A stretch of DNA of 64,000 nucleotides from Minisyncoccota bacterium (GCA_041648595.1 JBAZOQ010000002.1:10446-74445); one strand, 5' to 3'. Shown: positions 19,079 to 53,875, counted from the stretch's first letter. The notes: generated by a model not told the origin, from the sequence alone. Translations and numbers: made by a program.

Positions 19079-21091
19079 ATGTGCTATATTAAAAGAGTGA
19101 AAAAAGAAATTAAAAAAATAAATAATATAGAACAAGGTGTCATCTCTATATCCTCAAAAGGTACTGGATATGTAAAAACTCCTAATTTCGAAGAAGATCC
19201 AGAAATTAATTTTAAAGATCTAAATACAGCGCTTCATGGTGATACTGTTGAAATTACATTAAATGGAAAAGGAAATGGACGCCTTACAGCAAAAGTATCA
19301 AAAATAATATCTCGTGTGAAAATAGGTTTTTCTGGGGTTCTAGAAAAAGATCTTTCGACTTCACTCAAGACAGGAAATAATAATTATTTTTTAAAACCAG
19401 ATGATACAAAAATGTACACTGATATTTTGATACCAGAAAAAATGTTAAATGGGGCCAAAGTTGGTCAAAAAGTTTATGCAGAAATGACACTATGGAAAGA
19501 TTCACAAAAAGCACCCGAAGGAAAAATAATAAAAGTTCTAGGGCAACCAGGAGAAAATAACGCAGAAATGTATGCTATTGCAATGGAAAAAGGTTTTGAT
19601 AGTGATTTTCCTCAAAAAGTAGAAGAAGAAGCAAAAAAAATATCCGCCAAAGAAGGCGAACTAGCTTCTGGCTGGAAAGAAGAAATTACGAAACGTAAAG
19701 ACTTTAGAAAAACTTTAACATTTACAATTGATCCAGAAGATGCAAAAGATTTTGATGATGCTATTTCTTTTCGAATTCTCCCCCCTCTCCTTGATAAGGA
19801 GAGGGGGCTAGGGGGTGAGGTCTACGAGATAGGTATTCACATAGCAGATGTATCACATTATGTAAAAATAGGAAGTGAACTTGATAAGGAGGCAAAAAAT
19901 AGGGGTACTTCCGTATACTTAGTAGACAGAACTATCCCCATGCTCCCGGAAGCGCTTTCAAATGACTTGTGTTCTTTGGTACCAAATAAAGACAGACTGA
20001 CTATGAGCGCGGTTTTTATCGTCGATAAAAACGCGCAAGTAAAAAAGGAGTGGTATGGACGCACAATAATACATTCTCAAAAAAGATTTTCATATGAAGA
20101 AGCAGAAGAATCAATAAAAAAAGAAGAAATGCCACTGCATAAAGAACTTTCTATTTTAAACAGTTTAGCAAAAAAACTTACAAAAGAAAGATTTGCAAAT
20201 GGTGCTATATCTCTAGAACAAGAAGAAGTAAAATTTATTTTAGATAAAAATGGAGTACCTATAAAAGTAATAAAAAAAGAAAGAGGTGATTCTAATAAAT
20301 TAATTGAGGAATTCATGTTACTAGCAAATAAAAAAATTGCTGAAACTATTTCAAGGGGTACAAAAAAAGATGGTGGTGTTTTTGTATACCGAATACATGA
20401 CAATCCAAGCAAAGAAAAAATGACAGATTTAGCATTTTTCTTACGAGGATTAGGACATAAAATATCTCTAATAGATGGTGTAATACCAACAAAAGAAATA
20501 AATGCCCTCTTAAAAAATCTAGAAGGTAAAAACGAAGAAAATACGGTAAATCGTGCAGTAATACGTTCTATGGCAAAAGCAATTTATTCTACAAAAAATG
20601 TAGGACACTATGGTCTAGCTTTTGAATATTATGCTCATTTTACATCACCTATTAGACGATATCCAGATATAGTAGTACATAGACTTTTAACAGATTATCT
20701 AAAAAAATCAAAAGTCGGCAAGGAAAAACTAAATATTTATGAAGAAATTTCAAGACATGCATCGGAACGAGAAAAATATGCTTCTGATGCTGAACGAGCA
20801 TCTATAAAATATAAACAAGTTGAGTATATGTCTTCTCGTATATCACAAATATTCAATGGCACAGTAAGTGGAGCAACAGAATGGGGCATATATGTAGAGG
20901 AAATAGAAACAAAATGTGAAGGACTCGTACGTGTAAAAGATATGAGTGATGATTTTTATATTTTTAATGAAAAAAAATTAGAATTAATTGGACAGAAAAA
21001 AAAGAAAAAATACCGTTTAGGTGACAATGTAAAAATAAAAGTAAAAAGTGTTGATTTGGAAAGAAAAACAATAGATTATGTATTAGTATGA
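19079..21091 (+). CDS. rnr: Ribonuclease R / RNase II family exoribonuclease
   Basis: RNB catalytic block DRTIPMLPEALSNDLCSLVP and a C-terminal S1 domain. Carries an in-frame repeat-encoded insertion PPLLDKERGLGGEV. Confidence 0.9.
   Translation: MCYIKRVKKEIKKINNIEQGVISISSKGTGYVKTPNFEEDPEINFKDLNTALHGDTVEITLNGKGNGRLTAKVSKIISRVKIGFSGVLEKDLSTSLKTGNNNYFLKPDDTKMYTDILIPEKMLNGAKVGQKVYAEMTLWKDSQKAPEGKIIKVLGQPGENNAEMYAIAMEKGFDSDFPQKVEEEAKKISAKEGELASGWKEEITKRKDFRKTLTFTIDPEDAKDFDDAISFRILPPLLDKERGLGGEVYEIGIHIADVSHYVKIGSELDKEAKNRGTSVYLVDRTIPMLPEALSNDLCSLVPNKDRLTMSAVFIVDKNAQVKKEWYGRTIIHSQKRFSYEEAEESIKKEEMPLHKELSILNSLAKKLTKERFANGAISLEQEEVKFILDKNGVPIKVIKKERGDSNKLIEEFMLLANKKIAETISRGTKKDGGVFVYRIHDNPSKEKMTDLAFFLRGLGHKISLIDGVIPTKEINALLKNLEGKNEENTVNRAVIRSMAKAIYSTKNVGHYGLAFEYYAHFTSPIRRYPDIVVHRLLTDYLKKSKVGKEKLNIYEEISRHASEREKYASDAERASIKYKQVEYMSSRISQIFNGTVSGATEWGIYVEEIETKCEGLVRVKDMSDDFYIFNEKKLELIGQKKKKKYRLGDNVKIKVKSVDLERKTIDYVLV
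19779..19821. repeat. GC-rich palindromic element (family P1: CCCCTCTCCTT-NNN-AAGGAGAGGGG...GGGGTGAGGT) inserted in-frame inside rnr
   Basis: CCCCCTCTCCTTGATAAGGAGAGGGGGCTAGGGGGTGAGGT. The same core is at 27921, 47488, 47706 and 53817. Confidence 0.8.
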
Positions 21092-22968
21092 AATACACCC
21101 TTAGTCAAAAAATCAAATTAGGATTCTGGACAATTTTTGTAATAACTATAGGTATTTCTTTAGGATCTTTTTTTGTTAAAGATACTAAATATGAAAATAT
21201 GATAGAAACAAAAAATAATACAGCAACAATAGTAGAATCTACTATACGAGAAGAAACAATACCCAAAAATTCTTATTTTATAAAAGATGCTGAATTAAAA
21301 CCAAAAATTTCATCTCTAGCTTATTTAGTTGGCGACCTAGACACAGGAGAAATCATACTTTCAAAAAACCAAGATTCACCATTTCCTCTTGCTTCTGTCT
21401 CAAAACTAATGACTGCTACTGTCGCTACAGATTTAATGAATAGTGAAGATATACTTACAATTTCTAAAAAAACATTAGCCACATATGGAGAAAATGGAAA
21501 TTTTAAAATAAAAGAAAAAATAAAACTTTTAGATATTTTTTATCCATTACTTTTAGAATCAAGCAATGACGCAGGAGAAGCAATAGCTGAATTTTTTGAT
21601 AGAGAAACTTTCATAAAAAAAATGAATCAAATGGCTATGAAATTAGATCTCTCAAAAACTTCTTTTGAAGATCCGACTGGACTATCTTCAGAAAATCAAT
21701 CTACTGTCTCTGATATGTTCAAATTAGCAGGATATATAAATCAAAAAAAACCAGAAATATTTCAAATAACAACAAATAGAAGTTACACTAATAAAAAACA
21801 CACCTGGTTTAGTACTAATCAATTTCTTTCAGAAAATGGTTATATTGGTGGAAAAAGTGGATTCACAAACCCAGCATTACAAACAGTAATTTCTCTTTTT
21901 TCAGTTCCACTAGGAGAATCCGGAACACGCAATATAGCTATTACATTATTACAAAGCAATGACCGATTAAAAGATGTAGAAAATATTTTAAAATACTTAA
22001 ATAAAAATATATATTATGGAGGAGAAGCAGATGCAAATACAGCTTGGGTAAAAGAAAGAACGGACTTACCACTGTTTGATCAAGATTTCGTGACACTTAT
22101 TTTTAGTGGAGATATTATGCTTGATCGTGGAGTTAAAAGTTCTACAAATAAAAATTTCAATGGCGATTATTCTATATTATTTAATAAATTAGGAATTCTA
22201 AAAAGATCTGATATTGCTTTTGCAAATTTAGAAGGTCCAATTTCAAATGTAGGAAAAGATATGAAAAATTTATATTCATTTAGAATGGATCCTTCTGTAA
22301 CCCCTGCCCTTAAAGGTGCAGGTCTATCAATAGTCTCAGTGGCAAATAATCATGTTGGAGATTGGGGCCGTGATGCATATATTGATTCATTAGCACGTCT
22401 AAAAGAAAATGAAATTCTATACACTGGAGGAGGAATAAATGAATCTGAAGCGCTACAGCCAATTATTATTGAAAAGTATGGAATGAAAATAGGATATTTA
22501 GGATTTTCAGATGTAGGACCAAACTGGATGGGGGTAACGACAGATAAAGCAGGATTGCTTCTTGCTAATAATCCACACTTTAGTGAAATAATACAAAATG
22601 CCTCTAAACAAGTTGATTATTTAGTTGTAACATTTCATTTTGGTGAAGAATACAAAACAGAACATAACGCTAGACAAGAATATTTAGCACATAGTGCAAT
22701 AGATGCAGGTGCAAAAATAATAATAGGAACTCATCCACATGTAATACAAGATACAGAAATTTATAAAAATGGTTTTATAGCTTATTCATTAGGTAATTTT
22801 ATTTTTGACCAAGGTTTCTCAGAAAATACAATGGAGGGTATGCTTCTCGAAATAAAATTAAATATGGATGGTGATTTATCTATTAAAAAAAATATTGTCC
22901 AATTAAATAAACTTTTCCAACCAGAGAAAATAATAATAGGAAAAGAAGAAAAAATAAAATTTAAATAA
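21088..22968 (+). CDS. Fusion protein: N-terminal D-alanyl-D-alanine carboxypeptidase (peptidase S11/PBP5-like), C-terminal CapA/PgsA-like metallophosphoesterase
   Basis: SxxK (ASVSKLM), SSND and KSG motifs N-terminally. GDIMLDRG...AFANLEGP CapA motifs C-terminally. A TM anchor is present. Confidence 0.7.
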   Translation: MKYTLSQKIKLGFWTIFVITIGISLGSFFVKDTKYENMIETKNNTATIVESTIREETIPKNSYFIKDAELKPKISSLAYLVGDLDTGEIILSKNQDSPFPLASVSKLMTATVATDLMNSEDILTISKKTLATYGENGNFKIKEKIKLLDIFYPLLLESSNDAGEAIAEFFDRETFIKKMNQMAMKLDLSKTSFEDPTGLSSENQSTVSDMFKLAGYINQKKPEIFQITTNRSYTNKKHTWFSTNQFLSENGYIGGKSGFTNPALQTVISLFSVPLGESGTRNIAITLLQSNDRLKDVENILKYLNKNIYYGGEADANTAWVKERTDLPLFDQDFVTLIFSGDIMLDRGVKSSTNKNFNGDYSILFNKLGILKRSDIAFANLEGPISNVGKDMKNLYSFRMDPSVTPALKGAGLSIVSVANNHVGDWGRDAYIDSLARLKENEILYTGGGINESEALQPIIIEKYGMKIGYLGFSDVGPNWMGVTTDKAGLLLANNPHFSEIIQNASKQVDYLVVTFHFGEEYKTEHNARQEYLAHSAIDAGAKIIIGTHPHVIQDTEIYKNGFIAYSLGNFIFDQGFSENTMEGMLLEIKLNMDGDLSIKKNIVQLNKLFQPEKIIIGKEEKIKFK

Positions 22969-22974
22969 AAAAAA

Positions 22975-23010
22975 TCTGTCGTTGTGAATAAATCAACAAC
23001 AACAGATTTA
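22975..23010. terminator. Bidirectional terminator hairpin between convergent genes
   Basis: AATCTGTCGTTGTGA...TCAACAACAACAGATT imperfect inverted repeat. Confidence 0.45.
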
Positions 23011-23013
23011 ATC

Positions 23014-23280
23014 CTAAGGTAATTCTTTTTTTTCTGTTTTCAAATCAGGTTCATTCATAGAACCATTCAAACCAAGTAAAATAAAAAAACCAATACACCC
23101 TAAGAAAATTCTCCCAAATAAATCCATGCCAATATATTCACCAAAAAATCCTAAAATTAGCATGACCAAAGCAATACCACCAACGGTGGCATTTTCTCTA
23201 AAAAGTTTTTTGGGGTCTATTTTTTCGACTATCATAGGTTCATTTAATATCACCTCTATGTTTTTTTGTTCCTGTTGCAT
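23014..23280 (-). CDS. Small hypothetical membrane protein
   Basis: Two TM helices, 88 aa. Confidence 0.4.
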   Translation of the reverse strand: MQQEQKNIEVILNEPMIVEKIDPKKLFRENATVGGIALVMLILGFFGEYIGMDLFGRIFLGCIGFFILLGLNGSMNEPDLKTEKKELP

Positions 23281-23366
23281 TAAAAAACCCTTTCTATAAA
23301 AATGAAAAGAAAAATTTAGTTTATTCTTTTTCAGAATACATCTTCATTATAAAAAAGTCAACAAAT

Positions 23367-23400
23367 TCCCCCATATACGCCATGGCTGATATGAGGGTAA
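23367..23400. repeat. Hairpin repeat TCCCCCATATACGCCATGG-CTGATATGAGGGTAA (degenerate copy) downstream of the Cas2-like gene
   Basis: Homologous to 23811-23844. Confidence 0.7.
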
Positions 23401-23415
23401 TTTGTTAGAATCTCT

Positions 23416-23793
23416 TTACTTTTTTAGATAAGATTTAGCCAATTTAAATGTTTTAAAATTATCTCCTATTTTTATCTCTTTCAAATAATCTAAAAAATCT
23501 TTTGGTAGTGGAGAAGGCCCAACCCAAACACTTTTTTGAATCATTATATAACCAAATTTTATTAGTTGTCTTCGAAACCAATCTCTTTCTTTTTTCTTAT
23601 CAGATGGAATGTCATACATCACGATCAAATTTTTTGAAGAATCTTTATCAAAAGGTGAAGAAAAAGTAATATAATAAAACTTTCTTTTTCTATTTTTTGT
23701 TTTTGCACGACTTTCTCTACCTCTCGAGAAAATAGGAATACCAAAAGAATTTACTTCTATTCCTTTATAATATAATTTCTTTTTAAAACCCAT
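23416..23793 (-). CDS. Standalone Cas2-like (VapD/Cas2 fold) small protein
   Basis: LIVMYDIPSDKKKERDWFRRQLIKFGYIMIQKSVWVG aligns with the Cas2 YDV...RLRKV...G.RVQ.SVFE blocks. It is a paralogue of the C-terminal half of the 33078..33656 product. No cas1 or CRISPR array nearby. Confidence 0.5.
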   Translation of the reverse strand: MGFKKKLYYKGIEVNSFGIPIFSRGRESRAKTKNRKRKFYYITFSSPFDKDSSKNLIVMYDIPSDKKKERDWFRRQLIKFGYIMIQKSVWVGPSPLPKDFLDYLKEIKIGDNFKTFKLAKSYLKK

Positions 23794-23810
23794 ATATAAA
23801 CTATATCACA

Positions 23811-23844
23811 TTACCCCCATATACGCCATGGTGTATATGGGGGT
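23811..23844. repeat. Hairpin repeat ACCCCCATATA-CGCCATGGTG-TATATGGGGGTAA (perfect 10-bp stem) upstream of the Cas2-like gene
   Basis: Read directly. The loop contains CCATGG. Confidence 0.7.
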
Positions 23845-23882
23845 AAATACAATAAAAAAATAATTACTTATTTCAATAATTT

Positions 23883-26147: not shown

Positions 26148-26223
26148 ATTTATCCGCCTAAATTTTTAGAATTATAATATTTTTAATCATTTTACTTTAT
26201 TTTTGTGAAAAATTTTGGCGGAT

Positions 26224-26919: not shown

Positions 26920-26943
26920 CTTTTACTTTTTATTTTATAAACT

Positions 26944-27905
26944 TTATAACTTTTTACTACTCAATATTTCAATCGCGCGAGTTATAAGTGGAATAATATC
27001 ATTATAAATACGAAGTTCTGGAATTTCAGAGAGTTTAAACCAACGAGCATTATCTAATCCACCAGAATCTTCAAGTTTTAATTCACAATATTTACTTTCT
27101 GCTAAAAAATACGTAACTTTTTTTAATGTCTTCCCTTTTTCTGGATGAGAAGCTACATATTCATTTTCACCAAGTTTTTCTTTTATAATAATATCAAGTC
27201 CAATTTCTTCCTTTATTTTTCTTATTGTGCCATCTTCTACGCTTTCATTCTCAATTTCTGGATTATCTCCTACTTTACCTTTTGACAAAGTCCAATAACC
27301 AAAAACATCATGCACTAATGCAAATAAAGTATCTTTATTCCCGCCAGAGGAACGGGCAGGCTTTTGAGCATAAATCAATGCTCCACCCAACTTTTCAACT
27401 GGTAATTTTGTAATATCTACTGGCTCATCGTTTTTTTTCTTTTTACTTATTTGTTCTTTTCCAGGTTCACCAATCTCTTTATAAACTGCACCAAGAACAC
27501 CATTAACAAATTTACTAGAATTTTCTCCACCAAAAGTTTTCGCTAATTCTATAGCTTCATTTATGGCAACCTTAGGAGGTACTTGATTCCTATCACCAAA
27601 AAGAAGTTCAGTCAACCCAATTCTTAAAATATTTCTATCAACAATAGATATCTTATCAAGTGGCCAATCCGGTGCAGCTTTTTTTATTATCTCATCAACT
27701 ACTGTAACTTTTCTTAAAATTTCTTCTACTAATGTAGCCACAAAAACATCATCCTCAAGGCCAGGAGCAAATTCTTTTAAATTTCTGTTTAAAGCTTCTT
27801 TTGTTTTTTCGTCAGTCCAAACATTATTCTGTCCTCCAGTAGTCATAAAATCCCACTCAAAAAGCGTTTGGAGAACTATTGATCTTGAAAGGTGCCTATT
27901 TGCCA
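26944..27905 (-). CDS. nusB: NusB-like antitermination domain fused to a C-terminal Nudix-hydrolase-like domain
   Basis: N-terminal ~150 aa are NusB-like. The C-terminus has [15 protein letters not shown]...RKIKEEIGL, resembling the Nudix box. The start is taken at the ATG of MANRHL. Confidence 0.6.
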
Positions 27906-27920
27906 TAAAAATTACCAATT

Positions 27921-27979
27921 CACCTCACCCCCGACCCCTCTCCTTAATAAGGAGAGGGGTGCCAAAGGCGGGGTGAGGT
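27921..27979. repeat. GC-rich nested palindromic element (family P1, full-length form CACCTCACCCCCGACCCCTCTCCTTAATAAGGAGAGGGGTGCCAAAGGCGGGGTGAGGT)
   Basis: Outer ACCTCACCCCGCC/GGCGGGGTGAGGT and inner CCCCTCTCCTT/AAGGAGAGGGG inverted repeats. Near-identical copy at 53817. Confidence 0.85.
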
Positions 27980-28207
27980 TTACTTTGATTCTGCTTTCTT
28001 TGCTTTTTCTTTCTTCTGCTTCTTTTCCATTTTTTTAACTAAATCCAACACCTTCATCCCGCGATAGAAACCGCAAGATGAGCAAACTGTATGCTGTTTT
28101 TTAAGAGTTTTACAATTTTCACATTTAGTAAAACCCGTACTCACCAATGCATGATGTGAACGTCTGTTTGCTGTATGTGATTTTGTATGTCTCATTCGTA
28201 CTACCAT
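27980..28207 (-). CDS. rpmF: 50S ribosomal protein L32
   Basis: Small basic protein with a CxxC...CxxC zinc ribbon and an RRSH N-terminal block. Confidence 0.8.
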   Translation of the reverse strand: MVVRMRHTKSHTANRRSHHALVSTGFTKCENCKTLKKQHTVCSSCGFYRGMKVLDLVKKMEKKQKKEKAKKAESK

Positions 28208-28288: not shown

Positions 28289-28324
28289 TGTCTACTATCT
28301 TTTCATATGTAAAGATAGTAGACA
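28289..28324. repeat. Palindrome TGTCTACTATCTTT-TCATATGT-AAAGATAGTAGACA overlapping the RT stop codon
   Basis: 14-bp perfect stem. Related copy at 61944-61979. Confidence 0.7.
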
Positions 28325-29341
28325 CTAATACAATAGTGTTTAAGAACACCCATATAAGAAGCCATAATTTGTTGAAATTTATCTTTATTTATTTTCCCAA
28401 TAGCTAATTCTTTTCGTGCTTTTTTAAGTTTTTTAAAAATTCTTTTCTTGGTTCTCGTTCTTAATACAATTATGTTAGGTAAAATAACATAACCCACAAA
28501 ATCTATTCCTCGACTTAATTTTCTTATATAAACTTTATCTGGATGTAATTCAAGTTTTAAGTTTTGTTTTAAAAAAATTTCTATTTCTTTTTTGTATAAT
28601 GTAAGCAAATTTTCACTTTCAAAAATTAAGACAAAATCATCAGCATATCTAAAATAATGTTTAATTTTAAGTTTATGTTTTATAAATTGATCCAATTCAT
28701 TTAAATAAATATTTGCAAAAAGTTGGCTAGTTACATTACCCAAAGGAAGTCCAACATTTGGAAACTTCTCAAAACTTTTTAAAATTTTATTAATTAACCA
28801 TAATGTATCTTCGTCTGAAATCTTTTTTTTAATAAGCTCAAATAATATAATATGGTCTATATTTTCAAAAAATTTTCTAATATCACACTTTAAAACAAAA
28901 ACTGGCTGTTTCCAATTTTTACTTTCTTTACGTAAAGCTACAAAAAGTTTTTTTGATGCTTTGTGTGTCCCTTTTTTAAGTCGTGAAGAATATGAATGAA
29001 ATATAAAATGTTTATCAAAAATTTGATATAAAACTCTAAAAACTGCTTGATTTAACACTCTATCTCTAACCACCGCTTTATGTATATGTCTGCGTTTTGG
29101 ATCATACACAAAAAATGCTTGATACTTTGTAGGTTTATAAATTTTACTTATTAGTTCCTTATGTAAAGAAAATAAATTATTTTCTAAATTAAACTCAAAA
29201 TCTGCAACATCTATTTTTTTAGTTTTGCACTTTTTAAATTCCTTCCAAGCTTGAAGTAAATTTGATAAACTTACTACATTATGGAAAAAACTTTGAACAG
29301 CCCCCCCCCCCGACGCAATTTTTGATGTCCTTGTCGTTCAT
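28303..29341 (-). CDS. Diversity-generating retroelement reverse transcriptase (Brt-like); reading frame interrupted at a C11 homopolymer (29301-29311)
   Basis: LPLGNVTSQLFANIYL matches the DGR-RT hallmark (I/L)GxxxSQ motif 4. FRYADDFVLIF is the YADD active site. FFVYDPKRRHIHKAVVRDRVLNQAV and SYSSRLKKGTHKA align block by block with Bordetella Brt. The frame is open upstream of the annotated GTG back to 29337, but the ATG (MNDKDIKNCVGGG) is in another frame. Fusion needs C10 rather than C11. Confidence 0.85.
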
Positions 29342-29344
29342 AAG

Positions 29345-29674
29345 ATGAGAAAATTATATATCTATGTGTATATGATTGGCAACAAGTTACCAAAACGAGA
29401 TAAATTGGGAATTCATAGTTATATTGAAAAAGAATTTTTACAAACTTTTTCAACTTTAATAAACGCTTCACTTGAGCCAAAATCAGAAAAAATAACCTCA
29501 GTCAAAAAAGCGAGACTTCAAATAGAGACATTAAAACAATTATTCAGAACAGAATATGAAACAAAGATTATTACAGAAAAAGTATATTTAAATATAGAAT
29601 TAAAATTGCAAGAAATTTCTAAAATGACAAATGGTTGGTTAAAATATTTACAAACACAAAATCCGCCCAATTAA
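29345..29674 (+). CDS. Avd-like accessory variability determinant (four-helix-bundle protein, TIGR02436-like)
   Basis: 109 aa, basic. LPKRDKLGIHSYIEKEFLQTFSTLINASLE and C-terminal ISKMTNGWLKYL resemble the FPK-E-G...NIAEG and ML-GLIKSL blocks of bAvd-family proteins. Divergent from the RT. Confidence 0.55.
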   Translation: MRKLYIYVYMIGNKLPKRDKLGIHSYIEKEFLQTFSTLINASLEPKSEKITSVKKARLQIETLKQLFRTEYETKIITEKVYLNIELKLQEISKMTNGWLKYLQTQNPPN

Positions 29675-29694
29675 AATTGAAAGCGGATTTAAGT

Positions 29695-29817
29695 GAGAAA
29701 CTTCTGAACGGATACCATAACTAGAGTTCGAATTGTCCAGATTGTACCAATTCACATTGAACTTGTCGTTGTTCCAATTCGCGTTCGGAACATTACCATC
29801 CGAATTGCGAGAACCGT
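29695..29817 (-). other. DGR template repeat (TR)
   Basis: 123 bp aligned to VR at 30077-30198 with 15 core mismatches. Every one is a T in the plus strand of TR, i.e. an A in the minus coding sense. Non-A differences occur only at the IMH-like end (CTTC vs TTGC). Confidence 0.85.
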
Positions 29818-30017
29818 CCTATTACAAAAAATCATCCATTCCACCGACAAATCAATTACTTAATTTTCTGTGTTATCTCACAGTCGTGAGCAATATGTAG
29901 CATCATTACAAAATTGTATTATCTATGCTCAATTTTTTGCAAGCAGTTTCTTAATATGGCAAACTGTTATCTTAGTTTTAAGATCAGTTTATCAGCCAAA
30001 TATATTTTAACATAAAA

Positions 30018-30052
30018 AAATTGCGTTAGGTTTTTTAAAAACCTAACGCAAT
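30018..30052 (-). terminator. Perfect 15-bp hairpin TTGCGTTAGGTTTTT-TA-AAAAACCTAACGCAA downstream of the DGR target gene; terminator and/or DGR homing hairpin
   Basis: Followed by TTTTTTTATG in the minus-strand sense. Lies about 25 bp beyond the IMH end of VR. Confidence 0.6.
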
Positions 30053-30072
30053 AAAGATAAAAAGAAAAAAGA

Positions 30073-30807
30073 TTAAAGAGAAATTGCTGAACGGATACCA
30101 GAACTAGAGTTCGAACCGTCCAGATAGTACCAACTCACAAGGAACCCGACGCTGTCCCAATACGCGTTCGGAACATAACCATCCGAATAGCGAGAACCGG
30201 AACAGAAAGTAACACCTTTGATATCTAAATGATTTCCCGTTTCCGAGAAATACTTGATTTCAAGAATGATACGTTCCAAAACAGTGATTCCAATTTTCAT
30301 ATCAGCGTCAGCCTGCCTTGTTGATTTACCGAGATATTCAATGTCAGGTTCAATATCATCACGAACCCAAACAGCGTAATTGTCCGAAGACGTCCGTATA
30401 TTTGTTGGAATTGTCTTGTCTAAATCATCACTATAACGCCATGATTTAAAAATAGCTTTACAACAATCAAAGGCTTTGTTCATCGTCATACCTTTTGCGA
30501 TAAACAATAGACGCCAATTACCGTCAGGACGATTAGGAATGATAACTCTGCTGAAATCTACATCCCAATTGAAATGAGTTTTGTAAAATTTCTGCCATTC
30601 TTCACGAATATTGGCATACTCATCTACAATTGAGAAAACTTCTCGAAGCTTTTTTTTCAGCTCATTTTTGTGTCCGAGCCAATAATCAATTTGCACCTCA
30701 CTAAGTAATGTCGTTAAAAAGTCAACGATAAAACCAGCGAGAGAGCCAATTTTTTGCATTATTCCGCTAATGCTGAGCGTTTCAGATTTTGTCCCATGTT
30801 TTTTCAT
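30073..30807 (-). CDS. DGR target (variable) protein with a C-terminal C-type-lectin/FGE-like VR region; no signal peptide
   Basis: The C-terminal 40 aa (GVTFCSGSRYSDGYVPNAYWDSVGFLVSWYYLDGSNSSSGIRS) are encoded by VR. Adenine-containing TR codons map onto these positions. Confidence 0.8.
   Translation of the reverse strand: MKKHGTKSETLSISGIMQKIGSLAGFIVDFLTTLLSEVQIDYWLGHKNELKKKLREVFSIVDEYANIREEWQKFYKTHFNWDVDFSRVIIPNRPDGNWRLLFIAKGMTMNKAFDCCKAIFKSWRYSDDLDKTIPTNIRTSSDNYAVWVRDDIEPDIEYLGKSTRQADADMKIGITVLERIILEIKYFSETGNHLDIKGVTFCSGSRYSDGYVPNAYWDSVGFLVSWYYLDGSNSSSGIRSAISL
30077..30198 (-). other. DGR variable repeat (VR) at the 3' end of the target gene
   Basis: See the TR entry. It ends 2-5 nt before the target stop codon. 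Confidence 0.85.
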
Positions 30808-33077: not shown

Positions 33078-33656
33078 CTATGCTATTTTATTTAAACTGC
33101 CCAATTTGCTAATTTCAAAAATTTCAACAAATTCTAAAATTTTAAGGTTTTCTAAGTCTTTTATAAAATCTGCCGGAATTTTTCCTTTCCCTACCCAAAC
33201 ACTTTGATGAACCATTTTAAACCCAAAATTTTTGATAACTTCCCTGAGCCAATTACGCTTTCTTCGCAACCTCTCGGGAATATCGAAACTTATTATAATA
33301 GAGCTACTTTCTTCGATTTTTTTCTCATAAAATCTAGTTGGTAAATTATTTCGAAGTTTACTAAGTTTATCTATTCCTTTACTAGAAATTGTAAATTTAT
33401 TATTTTCTGAATTTTCAATAAGACCATCATGTTTCATCTTAGATATAAATATGGTTAATCTTCTTTTTCTATCTTTTAAGATTTCCACTTGAGATTTTTT
33501 AGCTTCAGAAATTCTCCTGCGTTTTTGATACTCATATTCGATCTTACTTGAACCAGCCCCATAACCGGCAACTAAAACAGCACCAAAGAAATCAACTTGG
33601 GTCATTGTTCCATTATAAAGAAGTTCTAAAGCTTTTAGTAAAATTTTTCCTTTCAT
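33078..33656 (-). CDS. Winged-helix plus Cas2-like two-domain protein (PaaX-like architecture)
   Basis: N-terminal KILLKALELL...DGLIENSENNKFTISSKGIDKL is wHTH-like. The C-terminal IIISFDIPERLRRKRNWLREVIKNFGFKMVHQSVWVG is a paralogue of the 23416..23793 product. Start taken at the internal ATG (MKGKILL), because the upstream 19 codons are encoded by the flanking hairpin repeat. Confidence 0.5.
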   Translation of the reverse strand: MKGKILLKALELLYNGTMTQVDFFGAVLVAGYGAGSSKIEYEYQKRRRISEAKKSQVEILKDRKRRLTIFISKMKHDGLIENSENNKFTISSKGIDKLSKLRNNLPTRFYEKKIEESSSIIISFDIPERLRRKRNWLREVIKNFGFKMVHQSVWVGKGKIPADFIKDLENLKILEFVEIFEISKLGSLNKIA

Positions 33657-33665
33657 AACTTTAAG

Positions 33666-33700
33666 TTTACTACATTGACGACCGTTAGTATAGTAAACAA
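33666..33700. repeat. Hairpin repeat GTTTACTACA-TTGACGACCGTTAG-TATAGTAAAC between the gyrB stop and the Cas2-like gene start
   Basis: Same stem and loop family as 33017-33054 (loop TTGACGGTCGTTAG vs TTGACGACCGTTAG). Confidence 0.7.
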
Positions 33701-33715
33701 GATACGTAAACAACT

Positions 33716-43238: not shown

Positions 43239-43245
43239 TAACTAA

Positions 43246-45178: not shown

Positions 45179-45256
45179 AAGATAATTTTAGCACAAATAA
45201 AAAACATATGTTATATGGTTTCCTTTTTTGTTTAAATAAGGTAGATTAAAGAATAT

Positions 45257-45343
45257 GGAGGCGTCGCATAGCGGTCTAGTGCACCATCTTGGAAAGGTGG
45301 CAGGCTCGAAAGGGTCTCGAGAGTTCAAATCTCTCCGCCTCCG
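45257..45343 (+). tRNA. tRNA-Ser (anticodon GGA), type II with a long variable arm
   Basis: Acceptor GGAGGCG/CGCCTCC. Anticodon stem CCATC/GGTGG with loop TTGGAAA. 18-nt variable arm. T-arm GAGAG-TTCAAAT-CTCTC. Discriminator G. No encoded CCA. Confidence 0.85.
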
Positions 45344-45347
45344 CAGA

Positions 45348-45944: not shown

Positions 45945-45958
45945 GGATTCATGAAGTT

Positions 45959-48554
<2,596 letters not shown>

Positions 48555-48570
<16 letters not shown>

Positions 48571-49097: not shown

Positions 49098-49098
49098 A

Positions 49099-49761
49099 TT
49101 ATGGTGTCGTTGGTATATAAATATCTATTAATCTTTGTGATACTGAAGTTTGCAAAGAGAAAGGTGTAATTAAATTATTCCGTGATCTAATTTCTCCAAC
49201 TAATTTAATTGTTACAAAAGGTTGTTGCTGGTCTCCTACTCCCTCTACTTCTGGTGCCTCTGCACCAGTTATTACAAAACTACTCTTTACTCCATCTATT
49301 ATTACTTCTTCGGAATTTAATTTCACAAAACTTCGTACACCATCTACACTATCTGTGGACTTACTAATATTAAAAATACCACCACCATCCTCGGAATCAA
49401 TTTTATATACCCATTGATCTCTATAATCATTTGGATTACCATTTGCATATTCAAATGCAATTCCCCAACAACTCTGACCACTTTTTGCTTTTACTATGTT
49501 TAAATCAGATAAATCATCAATAGAATTAATACAACGATAATTATAACCAGTTCTTATGTTTTTAGACATATCCTCCATAATAAAACTTAAATTATCCATA
49601 ATAGAGCGCATATCTTGAGACTTCGTATGAACAACATTAGCATTTAAAAGAGCATCCATACCAACTGCTATAATTATCAAAAAAATTGAAACAGCTATCA
49701 TGGTTTCTATTATTGTATATCCCCTTATATTAATATTTTTTTGTAATTTTAATTTATACAT
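49099..49761 (-). CDS. Minor type IV pilin
   Basis: MYKLKLQKNINIRGYTIIETMIAVSIF. Confidence 0.75.
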   Translation of the reverse strand: MYKLKLQKNINIRGYTIIETMIAVSIFLIIIAVGMDALLNANVVHTKSQDMRSIMDNLSFIMEDMSKNIRTGYNYRCINSIDDLSDLNIVKAKSGQSCWGIAFEYANGNPNDYRDQWVYKIDSEDGGGIFNISKSTDSVDGVRSFVKLNSEEVIIDGVKSSFVITGAEAPEVEGVGDQQQPFVTIKLVGEIRSRNNLITPFSLQTSVSQRLIDIYIPTTP

Positions 49762-49762
49762 A

Positions 49763-50413
49763 TTATTCTATTTGAACTCTACCAGAAGGATAAACTCTTA
49801 TATGTGCTGTGAAAGGATTTGAGCCAGAAGAAGATACAGTAATTCTCGCATATTCAAAACTACTACAAAAAGAATATCCACTTGAATCACTAATAAAAGC
49901 ACTGGAATCTGGTCGTTTAAAAACAATACTTAAATCATCTACCTCCCCACAACCAAAAGCTTCTAATTTAGTTATACTGTTGTTTTTAGTAATTCTAATA
50001 TGATCTAAAATTGAATCTGAAGAAAGCTTATTATAATAATTATTAATATTGTCAAAACTAGTGAAATAAATAATTTCTTTATTAAATGTCACAGCTGGAG
50101 AAATACTAGTATCTAAATCTGTAGATGATGAATTAAAATAAAGTCCATAAGAAGGTTTCCATTGATTATTAGCTGCAAGAATATTTTGTTGATCAACAGT
50201 AGGCAATTCACCAGACAATGCTGCTTTTTGTACTTCAATTATTTTAGAAGCAATATCATTTGCCAAAATTTTTATATCTACCTTTGCTTGAAAATCACCA
50301 TAATTAAAAAGAACAACAGAAGTTAATACAGAGAAAATACTTAAAACTACAATAAGTTCTACATAAGTCATTCCCCTATTTAGCTTATAACTTTTAGCCT
50401 TTAGCTTATACAT
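49763..50413 (-). CDS. Minor type IV pilin
   Basis: MYKLKAKSYKLNRGMTYVELIVVLSIF. The leader is encoded by AGCTTAT-type heptamer repeats. Confidence 0.75.
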   Translation of the reverse strand: MYKLKAKSYKLNRGMTYVELIVVLSIFSVLTSVVLFNYGDFQAKVDIKILANDIASKIIEVQKAALSGELPTVDQQNILAANNQWKPSYGLYFNSSSTDLDTSISPAVTFNKEIIYFTSFDNINNYYNKLSSDSILDHIRITKNNSITKLEAFGCGEVDDLSIVFKRPDSSAFISDSSGYSFCSSFEYARITVSSSGSNPFTAHIRVYPSGRVQIE

Positions 50414-50418
50414 AATTT

Positions 50419-51210
50419 CTAGAAACCAACTGGAAAGAGGCTTAATTCAAAAAGGAAAGCAATGATTACTCCCAAAACCAAAAATGGAGCAAACGGAATT
50501 TCACTTTTTATTCCATGTTTTTTAGAAAAAACAATGAGAACAAGCCCAACTATTGCACCTGACCAAAAAGCTACAACAGCTCCAGAGAGAATCCCAATAA
50601 AACCAAGAAGCCATCCGAGACCTAATGCGAGTTTCGCATCTCCAAGCCCCATCCAAGTACCTTTAGAGATAAGCCACAAAAGAGCAAAAGGTAATGCCAA
50701 CAACAATCCAGATAAAAGTTCTAAAACTATTGGAATATGAGGATAAAATAAATAATTAGAAAAGAAGAATATGCCAATGAAAGCCAAAATACCAAAAATT
50801 AAAGATAGCGAGTCCGGAATTGTTTTATGTTTAAAATCATATACTGCTATAACTAAAAGAAGAGAAAACATCGTAGCATAAAAGGCATAAGAAATAGAGA
50901 AACCAAAAGTATCAAGATAAAAAATATCTTGAAATTTTAAAAATATTCCTGCAAAAATTAATCCAGAAATAAATTCAACTATAGGGTATTGAATTGATAT
51001 TTTTGCTTTACAAGCCAAACATCTACCCTTAAGACCCAAGAAACTAAATAAAGGTATAAGCTCATACCAACAAAGTATTTTACGACAAGTCATACATCCA
51101 CTTCTTCCACCAAAAGAACGTCCAGTATTAAATCTAAAAATTACAACATTCAAAAAACTCCCAATAATAAGTCCTAAAATAAAAAATATAATTGTAATAA
51201 AAAATGTCAT
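50419..51210 (-). CDS. pilD: Prepilin peptidase (A24 family)
   Basis: CxxC...CxxC zinc site and polytopic membrane topology with conserved Asp residues. Confidence 0.85.
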   Translation of the reverse strand: MTFFITIIFFILGLIIGSFLNVVIFRFNTGRSFGGRSGCMTCRKILCWYELIPLFSFLGLKGRCLACKAKISIQYPIVEFISGLIFAGIFLKFQDIFYLDTFGFSISYAFYATMFSLLLVIAVYDFKHKTIPDSLSLIFGILAFIGIFFFSNYLFYPHIPIVLELLSGLLLALPFALLWLISKGTWMGLGDAKLALGLGWLLGFIGILSGAVVAFWSGAIVGLVLIVFSKKHGIKSEIPFAPFLVLGVIIAFLFELSLFPVGF

Positions 51211-51225
51211 AAAATTTTTTTATTA

Positions 51226-51744
51226 TTAAATACAAAGACCTGAAACAATAGCTCCACTAGGAGAAGAAACCACCAGCCTAGCTGCCCCTGTCACATCAAT
51301 ACACCAAGAAGTATTTGGTGCTAATTTTAAACCAACAACCACAGCCCATCCAGTACTAGAATTATAACAAGCACTACCATTACCACCCCTATTAACTGCC
51401 TCTGCTATAGAACCTGCTATATCTTTATTTTTAGAAAACATACTAGTTCCAGATTCATCATAAGAAGGACAATCACCATCAATAGATATATCACCAAGTG
51501 GTAAATATGTATTACCGTTGTTTAAAAAGAACATTTCAATTGCAGTTCTCGTGGTAGCTAAATTACTTTTTACAGCTGTTTCGTCACCCTTTTTTCTAGC
51601 GCTACTTAAATACCCAATAACAACTGTAGCTAAAAGACCAATAATAGCAACAACAACCAAAAGTTCAATCAATGTAAACCCGCCTGAAATTTTTTTTATA
51701 AAATTTTGGTGGGTAAAACCTTTTTCTTTTTTAAAATTTTTCAT
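51226..51744 (-). CDS. Type IV pilin (second major-pilin-like gene)
   Basis: GGFTLIELLVVVAIIGLLATV plus a C-terminal Cys pair (disulfide-bonded loop). Confidence 0.8.
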   Translation of the reverse strand: MKNFKKEKGFTHQNFIKKISGGFTLIELLVVVAIIGLLATVVIGYLSSARKKGDETAVKSNLATTRTAIEMFFLNNGNTYLPLGDISIDGDCPSYDESGTSMFSKNKDIAGSIAEAVNRGGNGSACYNSSTGWAVVVGLKLAPNTSWCIDVTGAARLVVSSPSGAIVSGLCI

Positions 51745-51794
51745 ATATATAAATAACAGTTAATTATAAACTTCATATATTATATCATATATAG

Positions 51795-51822
51795 AAATAT
51801 AAAAACCACCTAAAGGGTGGTT
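51795..51822. terminator. Perfect hairpin AAAAACCACC-TAAAG-GGTGGTTTTT downstream of the major pilin gene
   Basis: 9-bp stem with flanking A- and T-runs (bidirectional). Confidence 0.6.
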
Positions 51823-51850
51823 TTTATATTTCTATATTATTTATTACAGA

Positions 51851-52313
51851 TTATGAACAAATTCCTGTGGCTTGAGAAATTGAACCTTCTTTAGCCGCAC
51901 CTGCACTATCTACACAAAAGGTTGTAGCTGGAGTTTTCTTTAATGAAACAGAAGCTGACCAAGCATCACCAAGAGTAGAAGCATGAGCACTAACTGTTGC
52001 TCCTGCCGCAGTTGCAGCAGCTTTCAATCCATTTAACATCGTTGCATCAGCAAAGACATCAGTGCATCCTGTAACAACGTTTGGATTAGCACCAGTTACT
52101 GTACAAACAACTGCTGCAGCACTATACTTATTATTTGTATCATAATACATTGAAGCTTGAGCTCTCATATTTGACAAGTTTGCTTTAATAGCAGCATCTG
52201 AACCCTTTGTTCTTGCACTATTCAAAGATGCTAAAACAACTGACGCCAAAATACCAATAATAGCGACAACAACCAACAATTCAATCAACGTAAAACCTTT
52301 TTTAAAATTCTTC
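51851..52313 (-). CDS. pilA: Major type IV pilin (PilA-like)
   Basis: MKNFKKGFTLIELLVVVAIIGILASV and a C-terminal Cys pair. Start taken at MKNFKK (track start 52348 lies inside the upstream palindrome). Confidence 0.85.
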
Positions 52314-52342
52314 ATATTTTTTTTATTTACTAATAATATTTC

Positions 52343-52373
52343 AGCCATAGGCTGATCCGCCTTTGGCGGAAAC
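52343..52373. promoter_or_regulatory. Twin small palindromes TCAGCCATAGGCTGA + TCCGCCTTTGGCGGA upstream of pilA, related to the perfect palindrome upstream of pilM
   Basis: GGCTGATCCGCCTTTGGCGGAAAC vs GGCGGATCCGCCTACTGGCGGAAAA at 61103-61140. Confidence 0.45.
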
Positions 52374-52483
52374 TAATAATTTTTTCCGCCCTTGAGCGAA
52401 AGTTTCGACTTATTTTTAATACATCTATTATAACTTTTATTGTTATATTTATGCAAAAAAGTTATCCACAGGGGCAGCTTTAT

Positions 52484-52524
52484 TCCCCTCTTGAGGGGTG
52501 GCTCGCTTGCGAGACGGGGTGGAT
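52484..52524. repeat. GC-rich palindromic element, family P2 (TCCCCTCTTGAGGGGTGGCTCGCTTGCGAGACGGGGTGGA)
   Basis: Copies at 55967 and 56334. A related unit at 52541-52582 (CCACCTCCCCCCGACTAAAGTCGGGGTACTCCTCAAGAGGAG) follows it. Confidence 0.8.
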
Positions 52525-52540
52525 GCATTTCTAAACTTTT

Positions 52541-52582
52541 CCACCTCCCCCCGACTAAAGTCGGGGTACTCCTCAAGAGGAG
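52541..52582. repeat. GC-rich palindromic unit (CCCCGACTAAAGTCGGGG + CTCCTCAAGAGGAG), P2-related
   Basis: Read directly. Lies in the pilC-pilA intergenic region. Confidence 0.7.
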
Positions 52583-52587
52583 AATTT

Positions 52588-53814
52588 TTACTGTATTCCA
52601 CCAGCAAGGTTATAAATCGGCATTAATACAGAAACTAAAAGCACACCAACTCCCAAACCTAAAACCACAATCATAACTGGTTCAATAAGACCCACTAAAG
52701 TATCAACAGCATCATCAACTTCCCTTTTATAAAAATCAGCTAAAGTTTTCAAAATCTGACCCAGAGACCCAGTTTCTTCTCCGACCTTTACCATCTGCAC
52801 CATAATACCTGGAATTTGTTCCGGATGTTTTTCAAATGCACCTGAAAAAGACAAACCTGATTTTACTCCATTTGCTACATCTTTTAAAACTTCTTCATAT
52901 ACCCTACTACCAACGACACTGGATGTGATATCTATTGCACGAACGATAGGAATACCTGAAACAAGCATAGTATCCATATTATCTGATATTCTAGATAAAT
53001 ATAATTTTTTATAAAGATTACCTACTGCTGGAATAGAAAGACGTACCTTGTCAAGATATTCTTTACCTTTCTGTGTTGAAGAAAGTCTCCATGTCCATAT
53101 TCCCGCAAGTACAAGAAAAATAATGACAAGAAAACCATAATGTACAAAAAAATTAGAAAGTCCAATAACTATCTTCGTATAAATAGGTGGCTCCTGCCCA
53201 GAATCAAGAATAATGGCTGAGAGTTTTGGAATAACAATAACAAACATAAGACTCATAACTATAAAAAAGGTAGCAACGACAAACATAGGATATATGAGTG
53301 CATTTTTTGTTTTCGAAGTAAGTGCATATTGACGATTTAAATAATTTGCTAAATGATCAAAAGTCTCATTTAATTTACCTGTCTCTTCTCCAACTTTCAC
53401 CATATTTACATAAAAATCTGAAAAAACATCTGGATGTTTAGCTAGTGCACCTGATATAGAAATTCCAGATTGAAGATCACCAGTTATTTCTGTAAGTTTT
53501 TTTGCTAAAACTTTATTCTCTGCATTTGAAGCCAGCATCGTAAAAGCTCTCAATACAGAGACTTGCGCTGTAAATAAAGTTGATATTTGACGTGAGAGAA
53601 TAACAATTTCTTTCATTGGAACTTTTCCAAAAAAAGAAATTGTAAAAATAGATTTATTTTTATCTTCATCTACTATAGAAATAACAATAAATCCTCTTCT
53701 TTGAAGTCCACCTATAGCAAGATCACGACTTTGTGCATCAATTTCTCCTTCTTTGTTTATTCCTTTATCGTCTATTGCTTTATATTTGAAAAGCATAACT
53801 TTATTATAACACAA
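52588..53814 (-). CDS. pilC: Type IV pilus assembly platform protein (GspF family)
   Basis: Two T2SS-F repeats with 3 TM segments. True start possibly the internal MLFKYKAID. Confidence 0.88.
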   Translation of the reverse strand: MCYNKVMLFKYKAIDDKGINKEGEIDAQSRDLAIGGLQRRGFIVISIVDEDKNKSIFTISFFGKVPMKEIVILSRQISTLFTAQVSVLRAFTMLASNAENKVLAKKLTEITGDLQSGISISGALAKHPDVFSDFYVNMVKVGEETGKLNETFDHLANYLNRQYALTSKTKNALIYPMFVVATFFIVMSLMFVIVIPKLSAIILDSGQEPPIYTKIVIGLSNFFVHYGFLVIIFLVLAGIWTWRLSSTQKGKEYLDKVRLSIPAVGNLYKKLYLSRISDNMDTMLVSGIPIVRAIDITSSVVGSRVYEEVLKDVANGVKSGLSFSGAFEKHPEQIPGIMVQMVKVGEETGSLGQILKTLADFYKREVDDAVDTLVGLIEPVMIVVLGLGVGVLLVSVLMPIYNLAGGIQ

Positions 53815-53816
53815 TT

Positions 53817-53875
53817 CACCTCACCCCCGTCCCCTCTCCTTATTAAGGAGAGGGGTGCCAAAGGCGGGGTGAAGT
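53817..53875. repeat. GC-rich nested palindromic element (P1 full-length) between pilT and pilC
   Basis: CACCTCACCCCCGTCCCCTCTCCTTATTAAGGAGAGGGGTGCCAAAGGCGGGGTGAAGT, about 95% identical to 27921-27979. Confidence 0.85.

Follow-up and report, generated by a model that had tools for sequence, protein, structure and literature searches.

BoxC/PIT-class palindromic repeats inserted in frame in the RNase R and DNA ligase genes of a Paceibacteria genome

Element copies and the genes that carry them

The DNA analysed here, referred to throughout as the window, is a stretch of 64,000 nucleotides from a Minisyncoccota bacterium (GCA_041648595.1, JBAZOQ010000002.1:10446-74445) whose source is a metagenome-assembled genome (MAG). 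The host has an AT-rich genome of the Paceibacteria, in the candidate phyla radiation (CPR); over the 64 kb covered, GC content is 30.3 % and about 90 % of the sequence is coding. Within it lie five copies of a GC-rich nested palindromic element of 47-73 nt, which we assign to the BoxC/PIT class of repeats. BoxC/PIT elements have been known since the 1990s, and their origin, movement and function are unexplained. Three of the copies lie inside the genes of two essential enzymes, RNase R (rnr) and the NAD-dependent DNA ligase (ligA), and the other two in spacers internal to operons. A preliminary description of the window had reported copies at these five places and had stated that the coding ones keep the reading frame; both statements hold, all three being read through in frame, in rnr on the plus strand and in ligA on the minus strand.

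The rnr open reading frame (ORF; 19079-21091, plus strand, 670 aa) contains Pfam RNB, OB and S1 domains and matches B. subtilis RNase R (8CDU) with E=3e-114. Its element copy (19776-19822, plus strand) is made up of a hairpin at 19782-19806 (CCCCTCTCCTT-gat-AAGGAGAGGGG), a spacer and the block GGGGTGAGG at 19812-19820 on the sense strand, with a predicted RNA fold energy of -28 kcal/mol. It encodes (I)LPPLLDKERGLGGEV, given also as ILPPLLDKERGLGGEV.

The ligA ORF (45959-48046, minus strand, 695 aa; E=1e-148 against E. coli LigA, 2OWO) carries two copies. At site 1, just upstream of the KxDG motif, the copy occupies 47696-47747 on the minus strand, with an outer arm CACCTCACCCC at 47696-47706 and a hairpin at 47709-47733; on the sense strand the hairpin is followed by GGGGTGAGG, and 13 residues are encoded. 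Site 2 holds the full-length nested form (47476-47548, plus strand), comprising a degenerate left arm, a hairpin at 47490-47521 with a longer loop of 14 nt, a small hairpin GCTGCGAAGCAG and GGGGTGAGG at 47538-47546, this arm being intact on the plus (antisense) strand. The site 2 copy encodes a 22-residue peptide, and its predicted RNA fold has an energy of -34 kcal/mol (z=-5). Both copies are real as earlier described, with corrected limits: the first had been given as 47706-47747 and begins at 47696, its outer arm being present, while the second had been given as 47488-47546 and extends over about 47476-47548 with the degenerate left arm and the extra small hairpin. Likewise, the claim that the coding copies add the same peptide is true of two of them, which give PPLL(D/Y)KERG(L/R)G(G)EV, whereas ligA site 2 yields a different peptide.

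The two intergenic copies are full-length, 65 nt each and 95 % identical to each other. The one at 27916-27980, which has both outer arms, the inner hairpin and a small second hairpin, sits in a co-directional gene string between the rpmF (L32) stop codon and a NusB-NUDIX gene, ending 13 nt before the ATG of the latter; for its RNA a fold energy of -44 kcal/mol (z=-5.9) is predicted. No element is present in the corresponding, syntenic spacer of L123. The other copy (53812-53876; -40 kcal/mol, z=-6) follows the stop codon of a PilT-like T2SSE gene and precedes the start of the PilC (T2SSF) gene.

Anatomy of the element

In all five copies the inner hairpin has the form CCCCTCTCC(TT)-loop-(AA)GGAGAGGGG, where CCCCTCTCC starts at 19782, 27935, 47490, 47709 and 53831 and GGAGAGGGG follows 16-23 nt downstream each time. 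Its arms are, in every copy, a polypyrimidine run and the complementary polypurine run, and the predicted fold is obtained as DNA and as RNA. The block GGGGTGAGG mirrors the purine arm GGAGAGGGG, one A being replaced by T, and this is the signature of a purine-motif intrastrand triplex; such a mirror block is present in all five copies, once as GGGGTGAAG. The outer arms that flank the inner hairpin are (A/C)ACCTCACCCC and/or GGGGTGAGGT. Arm CCTCACCCC is located at 27923, 47698 and 53819, and arm GGGGTGAGG at 19812, 27970 and 47538, with the GGGGTGAAG variant at 53866. Both arms occur in the two intergenic copies and in ligA 47476-47548, where one of them is degenerate, and a single arm in the rnr copy 19776-19822 and the ligA copy 47696-47747. 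Since full-length copies carry the G/T-rich block on both strands, the element constitutes a nested palindrome, whose spacer frequently includes a small variable hairpin.

In short copies the loop measures 3 nt and the spacer 2-5 nt; in full-length copies the spacer measures 11-16 nt and includes the second hairpin, and one copy has a 14-nt loop (the search rule of the ITxF database is a loop of 1-6 nt). The element ends in (A)ATTCACCTCACC... and ...GGTGAGGT(T/G), and GTAG and CGTC are both absent. Across copies the predicted RNA fold energy lies between -27 and -44 kcal/mol and z reaches -6, as calculated with folding tools that consider Watson-Crick pairs only. The exact 9-mer of the arm was found 10 times on both strands of the 64 kb as against 0.046 expected from base composition, and 11 times when up to one mismatch was allowed as against 3.0 in shuffled sequences, where 0 of 100 shuffles reached 11. 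The left flank TTCTCCCC, common to the rnr and ligA site 1 copies, was considered as a further part of the element and rejected for ligA, where it is native, because its Leu codons vary synonymously among alleles that carry the insert (CTT CTC / TTA TTG / TTA CTT).

A short relative of the element, consisting of CCCCTCttGAGGGG, a variable hairpin and GGGGTGGA, is present in three to four copies around the pilus genes. It is found in the intergenic region 52481-52590, where a second unit, degenerate and oppositely oriented, lies approximately 16 nt off; at 55964-56008 (plus strand), within the N-terminal 21 codons of a called DUF559 ORF, which may in fact start farther downstream; and in the intergenic segment 56331-56377 (plus strand), where the middle hairpin has a different sequence and keeps its pairing.

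Insertions in RNase R and LigA compared with orthologues

For each protein the 120 nearest orthologues were compared, with 67-86 % identity, from Nomurabacteria/Paceibacterota. The closest relatives have native short loops at the insertion sites, KEVGNNE in RNase R and KKLLPSNTKFY and LKLIAPYPDY in LigA, and the short-state consensus among the nearest orthologues is FK-EIxNNE-YEIG for RNase R and KKLLPxNTKFN-YFCE and LxLxxPYPEY for LigA. This short state is still present in relatives down to 46 % identity, and E. coli LigA 2OWO and B. subtilis RNase R 8CDU are gapped at each of the three sites, so that unrelated orthologues do not share the inserted residues. Judged from these alignments, the inserts are derived states. 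At the DNA level, comparison of alleles with the insert (filled) and without it (empty) indicates that the element replaces 5-7 native codons; the rnr copy takes the place of the 7-codon native loop KEVGNNE of the nearest orthologue, and no target-site duplication was seen between filled and empty alleles of rnr and ligA. Neither the empty allele L208 nor E. coli LigA has the insert of ligA site 1, while at site 2 the same element, with both arms intact, is found in L204 and L205 and the empty allele L208 has LKLIAPYPDY.

In AlphaFold models built with orthologue alignments, the predicted local distance difference test score (pLDDT) falls below 50 for LigA residues 107-114 and 172-187 and for RNase R residues 240-245, and the flanking strands are confident. 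The RNase R site is the tip of a β-hairpin after the DxxDDA motif, and the insert at LigA site 1 ends six residues ahead of the KxDG lysine. The inserts are thus predicted to be at the protein surface and compatible with the fold, all three being low-confidence loops between well-predicted strands. The preliminary description had placed one LigA insert just before KxDG and the other in a loop shorter in E. coli, had matched the coding copies to the intergenic ones and had likened the insertions to those of the Rickettsia palindromic element (RPE). The LigA placement is correct, the match holds in DNA-level alignment, and the comparison with RPE is supported by the absence of the inserts from close and distant orthologues, by their position in low-confidence loops and by the finding that 40-55 % of the 120 nearest orthologues have some insert at these loops. 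Of the two outcomes that the description had named as refuting, native residues of this kind in unrelated lineages and a failed match to the intergenic copies, neither was observed.

Beyond that description, insertion at these hot-spot loops is lineage-wide and involves several families, and the element itself is not particular to Patescibacteria. The loops are expanded in 65 of 120 RNase R orthologues, 46 of 107 at LigA site 1 and 57 of 101 at LigA site 2. They are filled by several families of peptide that look unrelated, namely PPLLxKERGLGGEV, PSPLQGEGQGGEV, LPSLEKEGVGGG(NLINHHPALKGTPPQQGG)E, TPSASHPPLSISGKMERGRGEV, GHPMSKWTSDVQ, SSSKGPRISGAPNPGQTISHRTL and others. The peptide sequence of one RNase R (P0167) has an apparent second element within the hairpin loop of the first, and LigA alleles such as KKLLVGGEVN, again as peptides, are apparent remnants in which the hairpin is lost and the tail kept.

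It may be asked whether the inserts are artefacts of assembly or chimerism, as the window comes from a MAG and assemblers can be confused by GC-rich repeats. The probability of this is negligible. The sequence is reproduced exactly by independent assemblies and the inserts are therefore not an assembly artefact: L210 matches the window with 100 % identity along 22 kb, ligA included, and L211, from another sample, is identical through rnr. Moreover, the frame is preserved, and JGI, ENA, NCBI and Logan data contain dozens of orthologues with the same inserts.

Other loops and segments of note occur in LigA and in two further genes. A third hot-spot loop of LigA, in the zinc-finger region (residues 445-452, approximately 46690-46715), is short in the window (GNSQSPS, pLDDT<50); in many orthologues it holds inserts of 20-29 residues belonging to at least two families, SSSKGPRISGAPNPGQTISHRTL and KNSSALLHPSGGTFRxxNSS. 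The NusB-NUDIX gene has at 27338-27363 a GC-rich in-frame segment of 7 residues, KPARSSG, missing from the syntenic L123 orthologue, and DnaG has a small GC-rich in-frame segment, KPASPSLGGAEK, at 6252-6285. The latter two probably belong to different element families.

Conservation and recombination of filled alleles

Where the window and an orthologue share a residue, the codon is also identical in 80-100 % of cases inside the element and in 43-65 % of cases in the rest of the gene (five window-orthologue pairs, Fisher p 0.0006-0.024). Differences among alleles in the element itself are confined to the hairpin loop and the spacer. In neighbour-joining trees of rnr and ligA orthologues, filled alleles with the same boundaries are scattered among empty ones; the boundaries of the rnr insert in the window and in the filled allele L122 are the same to the nucleotide, and three LigA alleles share the loop triplet TAT.

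For the greater part of rnr, the allele nearest to that of the window is the empty L121. Around the insert, however, in an interval of ~500 nt (19613-20105) that was picked after inspection and compared among three sequences, 57 informative sites favour the filled L122 and 34 the empty L121, as against 81 and 176, respectively, in the rest of the gene (p=4e-7). This mosaic points to transfer of the filled rnr segment by homologous recombination, which may have proceeded through the conserved flanks DFDDAISF and YEIGIHIADV.

A separate boundary was seen in the near-identical assembly L211, where all 94 mismatches and 10 gaps relative to the window begin at ~21,000, close to the rnr end at 21091, within ~400 nt and at ~70 % identity. 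Its appearance is that of a sharp edge left by recombination or gene replacement.

The 5' C-rich arm of the element tends to adjoin or overlap native Leu-Pro or Pro-Leu codons, as seen at LigA site 1 (KKLLP|), at site 2 of the LigA of L207 (IPL|) and at the rnr site, for which the more distant empty alleles read xLPNGN. This position could reflect insertion guided by microhomology, which we rate as a minor possibility, or plain loop composition.

Occurrence across phyla and on viral contigs

A scan for the exact 25-mer CCCCTCTCCTTNNNAAGGAGAGGGG, using one genome per species and with an estimated ~0.03 loci expected by chance, yielded at least 120 loci from many phyla. Among the matches listed, the hosts are Nostocales, Bacteroidota, Ignavibacteria/Melioribacter, Dehalococcoidia, Chthonomonadaceae, Leptospirales, Desulfobacterales, Gammaproteobacteria, Nomurabacteria, Falkowbacteria and two MAGs labelled Bathyarchaeia, where single matches in MAGs could be contamination. 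An outer arm is present on at least one side in 136 of the 140 copies at the loci listed (at least 120), usually at a distance of 2-3 nt, or of 10-23 nt with an intervening second hairpin.

The mirror block was found downstream of 240 of 510 asymmetric pyrimidine/purine hairpins as against 11 expected from permuted arms, in a set drawn from all DNA fetched and dominated by the family used to collect the loci; among the same 510, 18 have a direct copy and 5 have the mirror upstream. In rarer variants the third block tracks the arm (GGAGGGG/GGGGTGG, GAGGGG/GGGGTG and GGAGAAGGG/GGGATGAGG). A strict scan for perfect-stem triplex motifs in 856 kb, that is, the window and 792 kb of relatives, detected 76 hairpins, 15 of them with a third strand. 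The exact GGGGTGAGG tag occurs 5 times in the 792 kb of relatives and 6 times in the 64-kb window, and as it is rare in relatives the abundance of the element is lineage-specific.

Insertion into coding DNA is seen in this wider set as well. Among the matches listed, stop-free frames of 120 codons or more enclose 23 of the 140 cross-phylum copies, and genes confirmed by Pfam across the insert are Dus (Nomurabacteria MAG), RarA/MgsA (Falkowbacteria MAG), an AcrB-family protein and a Melioribacter protein, where the insert is in the type IX secretion system (T9SS) C-terminal sorting domain. A second Ignavibacteria protein has one apparently, by eye, at the same position as the Melioribacter protein. 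Normally two frames are open, PPLLxKERG and PLSLxRRG; the third has stop codons in the loop in the coding copies of the window, and it is used as PSPxEGEG, with stop-free loops, in 3 of the 23 long-ORF copies. The exact 25-mer was also found on 9 IMG/VR viral contigs. One of these, a 7.3-kb Mu-like fragment (L212) with portal, Mu F, terminase and tail S genes, has five copies, two of which are in frame, in Mu F and in the large terminase.

Other features of the window

A complete diversity-generating retroelement (DGR) lies at 28303-30807, with a reverse transcriptase at 28303-29109 (minus strand), bAvd at 29345-29674 (plus strand), a template repeat at 29695-29816 and a variable repeat at 30078-30199, the latter at the 3' end of the ORF 30073-30807 (minus strand). 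Of the 17 mismatches between the two repeats, 16 are at T on the plus strand, that is, A on the coding strand. An AT-rich spacer adjoining the avd gene contains a run of 11 C at 29291-29321. An AT-rich palindrome of ~40 nt occurs at 28289-28329 and 61939-61979, the two sites being 90 % complementary, and the former was scored as terminator-like on the minus strand. Two paralogous ORFs with a Cas2-like PaaX_M domain are located in the regions 23368-23843 and 33078-33713, and the ORF 23416-23793 lies between 66-nt inverted repeats (23368-23433 and 23778-23843), an arrangement suggestive of a small mobile cassette or of a module resembling a toxin-antitoxin system. The only Rfam match in the window is a tRNA gene just downstream of ligA (45257-45343, plus strand), which at 87 nt has a long variable arm.

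Nature and persistence of the insertions

Taken together, the five copies are probably dispersed non-coding selfish repeat DNA of the BoxC/PIT class that selection has filtered into permissive loops. On this account copies would reach new sites by a route in which a transposase is not seen, and the pattern of intragenic copies shows that those which persist are the ones with a net length that is a multiple of three, no stop codon in the frame used and a position in a surface loop. The inserts, to judge from the intact frames, would be read through and add a loop rich in Pro/Leu...Gly, the peptide itself being a by-product. Filled alleles may then pass between related lineages by homologous recombination via the conserved flanking codons, the support for this step coming from rnr. 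Copies would finally decay by loss of the hairpin, leaving the 'GGEV' remnants, and the loops could take further elements, as the peptides mentioned above suggest.

Several observations weigh against this account. Mobility would follow from the distribution of copies rather than from any observed event: the near-identical strains L210 and L211 show no presence/absence polymorphism, the former being 100 % identical and the latter identical through rnr, so the attempt to derive recent mobility from them was rejected. No transposase domain, Y1_Tnp or other, was detected among the ORFs of the 64-kb window that were scanned or had Pfam matches; the DGR reverse transcriptase is present, and nothing ties the DGR to the element. 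Because 5-7 native codons give way to the element, which does not sit cleanly between them, the course of the insertion is beyond reconstruction. The rnr mosaic is subject to the choice of interval and the small number of sequences given above, and in the equivalent test for ligA the recombination signal is confounded by the element's own columns. Translation of the inserts would follow from the intact frames alone. Finally, the high synonymous conservation could equally mean selection on DNA or RNA structure, i.e. a function.

The last point leads to the suggestion that the element is kept for a useful nucleic-acid structure, such as an RNA hairpin in the spacers that stabilises or processes polycistronic mRNA, one inside genes that slows the ribosome between folding units, or a DNA triplex or cruciform acting in replication or recombination. 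Stems are perfectly conserved while loops and spacers vary, the codons of the element are far more conserved than those of the gene, the middle hairpin shows compensating changes, the predicted RNA structures are very stable and the architecture is kept across phyla; both intergenic copies, besides, fit precisely between the stop codon of one gene and the following gene in operon-like strings. Nevertheless we regard a structural role as unlikely, given that most close orthologues lack the element at the same site, that different, unrelated elements occupy the same loops and decay remnants exist, that no T-tract follows the hairpin, and that the related E. coli PIT elements have no promoter or terminator activity and form no triplex detected in vivo (PMC4666352). 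Particular roles of this kind were also tried and set aside. A terminator role of the intergenic copies was rejected as there is neither a T-tract nor a terminator call, and no known RNA family matched at the Rfam gathering score, the hits being chance matches to miRNA-model hairpins with E>0.008. Resemblance to the Shine-Dalgarno sequence and the 16S 3' end (AAGGAG..GGTGA, CACCTC..CCTTA) is likely a purine-rich coincidence; the Shine-Dalgarno-like block lies 13 and 19 nt from the ATG in the two spacers and so is too far for a ribosome-binding site. The idea of a DNA-uptake sequence was rejected on account of the low copy density and the cross-phylum identity.

If the peptide were instead a selected protein module that gives RNase R and LigA a shared property, for example a binding site, the near-identical 14-residue peptide in the two enzymes and in many orthologues would be accounted for. 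This is very improbable, as the DNA in question is found in non-coding spacers too and, in different proteins, has two frames and both orientations in use (PPLLxKERG, PLSLxRRG, TSPPTPLL), conservation extends to the nucleotide level and not to residues alone, the variable residue is the one coded by the hairpin loop, the segment is predicted to be disordered and most orthologues lack the peptide. A further suggestion concerns how copies arrive and does not compete with the identity of the element: the C-rich arm or the G-rich third strand could direct insertion by pairing with CT-rich Leu-Pro or Pro-Leu codons (CTNCCN), through microhomology or an intermolecular triplex. The contacts of the 5' arm with such codons at LigA sites 1 and 2 (the latter in L207), the xLPNGN alleles at the rnr site, the rnr boundaries shared to the nucleotide with L122 and the one apparent insert into an existing hairpin loop (P0167) are in keeping with it. 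Still, we give it a low probability, since the empty rnr alleles closest to the window (KEVGNNE) lack Leu-Pro, Pro and Gly are frequent loop residues in any case, allele transfer by homologous recombination fits the rnr mosaic better, and loop triplets shared within sub-clades, such as TAT in the three LigA alleles, point to common descent.

With selfish BoxC/PIT-class DNA as the preferred reading, a bolder extension can be considered, which we put forward as a speculation with a modest chance of being right. The BoxC/PIT palindrome might be a single pan-prokaryotic mobile family with an architecture of ~45 nt, spanning bacterial phyla, the Bathyarchaeia-labelled MAGs and the Mu-like contig, that has no dedicated transposase and uses the replication and recombination machinery of the host to insert into hairpin loops or CT-rich tracts. 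If so, it would be a major and ongoing source of new loops of essential proteins in the gene-dense CPR genomes, and the pairs of filled and empty alleles in Paceibacteria would make a 30-year-old question of mobility directly tractable.

Significance

In-frame palindromic repeats and triplex-motif repeats are each already known. What is new is a BoxC/PIT-type element as a coding insert, on a large scale and in hot-spot loops of essential enzymes of Paceibacteria, together with its presence on a phage contig and in many further phyla. In the literature searched, no paper was found reporting such coding inserts or linking CPR/Patescibacteria with miniature inverted-repeat transposable elements (MITE), REP or RPE, which is absence of evidence within that search. 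The observations imply that an old repeat family can colonise protein-coding genes in the fashion of RPE, and they join two literatures, that of triplex-motif repeats and that of RPE-like coding palindromes. With roughly half of the nearest RNase R and LigA orthologues carrying some insert at the same loops, such elements are a source of protein length variation and of spurious alignment gaps in Patescibacteria. They also offer a natural series of filled, empty and decayed alleles that can be used to work out the mechanism of insertion, and the copies on the phage contig suggest a plausible vehicle for spread across phyla.

Comparison with known repeat systems

Among known systems, REP/REPIN repeats with their RAYT transposases are likewise short, GC-rich, non-autonomous, dispersed palindromes, with doublets forming a longer hairpin (PMC3116915) and a conserved short block beside the hairpin. 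However, the element of the window lacks the GTAG/CGTC tag used as a criterion (PMC3733652), no RAYT gene occurs in the 64 kb, and REPs are extragenic by definition. Intragenic MITE-like elements such as the Coxiella QMITE and ERIC are also small and non-autonomous and occasionally fuse in frame with ORFs; they differ in being larger, with terminal inverted repeats and target-site duplications, and in deriving from insertion sequences (PMC5896051, PMC10969869). The outer arms of the element could pass as terminal inverted repeats, but native codons are replaced, no duplication is present and no parent insertion sequence is found in the window. The small dispersed repeats (SDR) of Nostocaceae (Elhai et al. 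2008, as cited in PMC5861425 and PMC3116915) are very small hairpin repeats of 21-27 nt. They are reported to show nested insertion and conserved blocks around a variable hairpin. The overlap established with the element is in host taxa, namely cyanobacteria carrying the exact 25-mer.

RPE is closer in behaviour. RPE elements, known from Rickettsia, are ~100-150 bp long (Ogata et al. 2000, 2002; summarised in PMC10969869). In both cases a palindromic repeat lies in frame in unrelated housekeeping genes, is absent from orthologues and occurs in non-coding DNA as well, the predicted position is at the protein surface with the fold intact, and a lineage has several families. The elements of the window are set apart from RPE, as described, in being GC-rich in an AT-rich genome, in having a triplex-mirror block and in occurring across phyla. 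The element works like an RPE but is not one, because its length is 47-73 nt and its host belongs to the Paceibacteria.

The closest relative is the E. coli repeat known as BoxC, PIT or TM_ECO, which has the structure CCCTCTCCC-loop-GGGAGAGGG-spacer-GGGTGAGGG (Holder et al. 2015, PMC4666352). A copy in the K-12 hrpB-mrcB spacer was verified by sequence as CCCTCTCCCtgtgGGAGAGGGccgGGGTGAGGG. The motif is found in more than 260 genomes, cyanobacteria included, with no link to transposons, and in E. coli K-12 it has 23 copies, all intergenic (PMC4666352). Its single strand forms a triplex in vitro and none was detected in vivo, purine-motif triplexes are not formed in RNA, and neither promoter nor terminator activity was found, the spread and function being unexplained (PMC4666352, which also cites earlier work by Bergler and by Hoyne/Maher).

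The element of the window shares with it the succession of pyrimidine arm, loop, purine arm, short spacer and G/T-rich mirror of the purine arm, and the A-to-T change in the third strand at the corresponding, more 5', of two A positions. The 8-nt cores of all three blocks, GGAGAGGG and GGGTGAGG among them, are identical (shared 8-mers CCTCTCCC/GGAGAGGG, GGGTGAGG), and both repeats are dispersed in multiple copies on either strand and in inverted configurations with no associated transposase. They differ in that the arms are shifted by one G (CCCCTCTCC in the window, CCCTCTCCC in E. coli), and that the window has two third-strand blocks around a single hairpin where E. coli has two whole motifs inverted side by side. 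Spacers in the window often have an extra variable hairpin, and its host is a CPR genome of 30 % GC. Most strikingly, the K-12 copies are all intergenic, whereas three of the five copies in the window lie inside essential genes and are read through; intergenic position, though, is a description of E. coli and no defining trait of the family. Judged by architecture and core sequence, the element nonetheless belongs to the BoxC/PIT class of intrastrand-triplex motifs.

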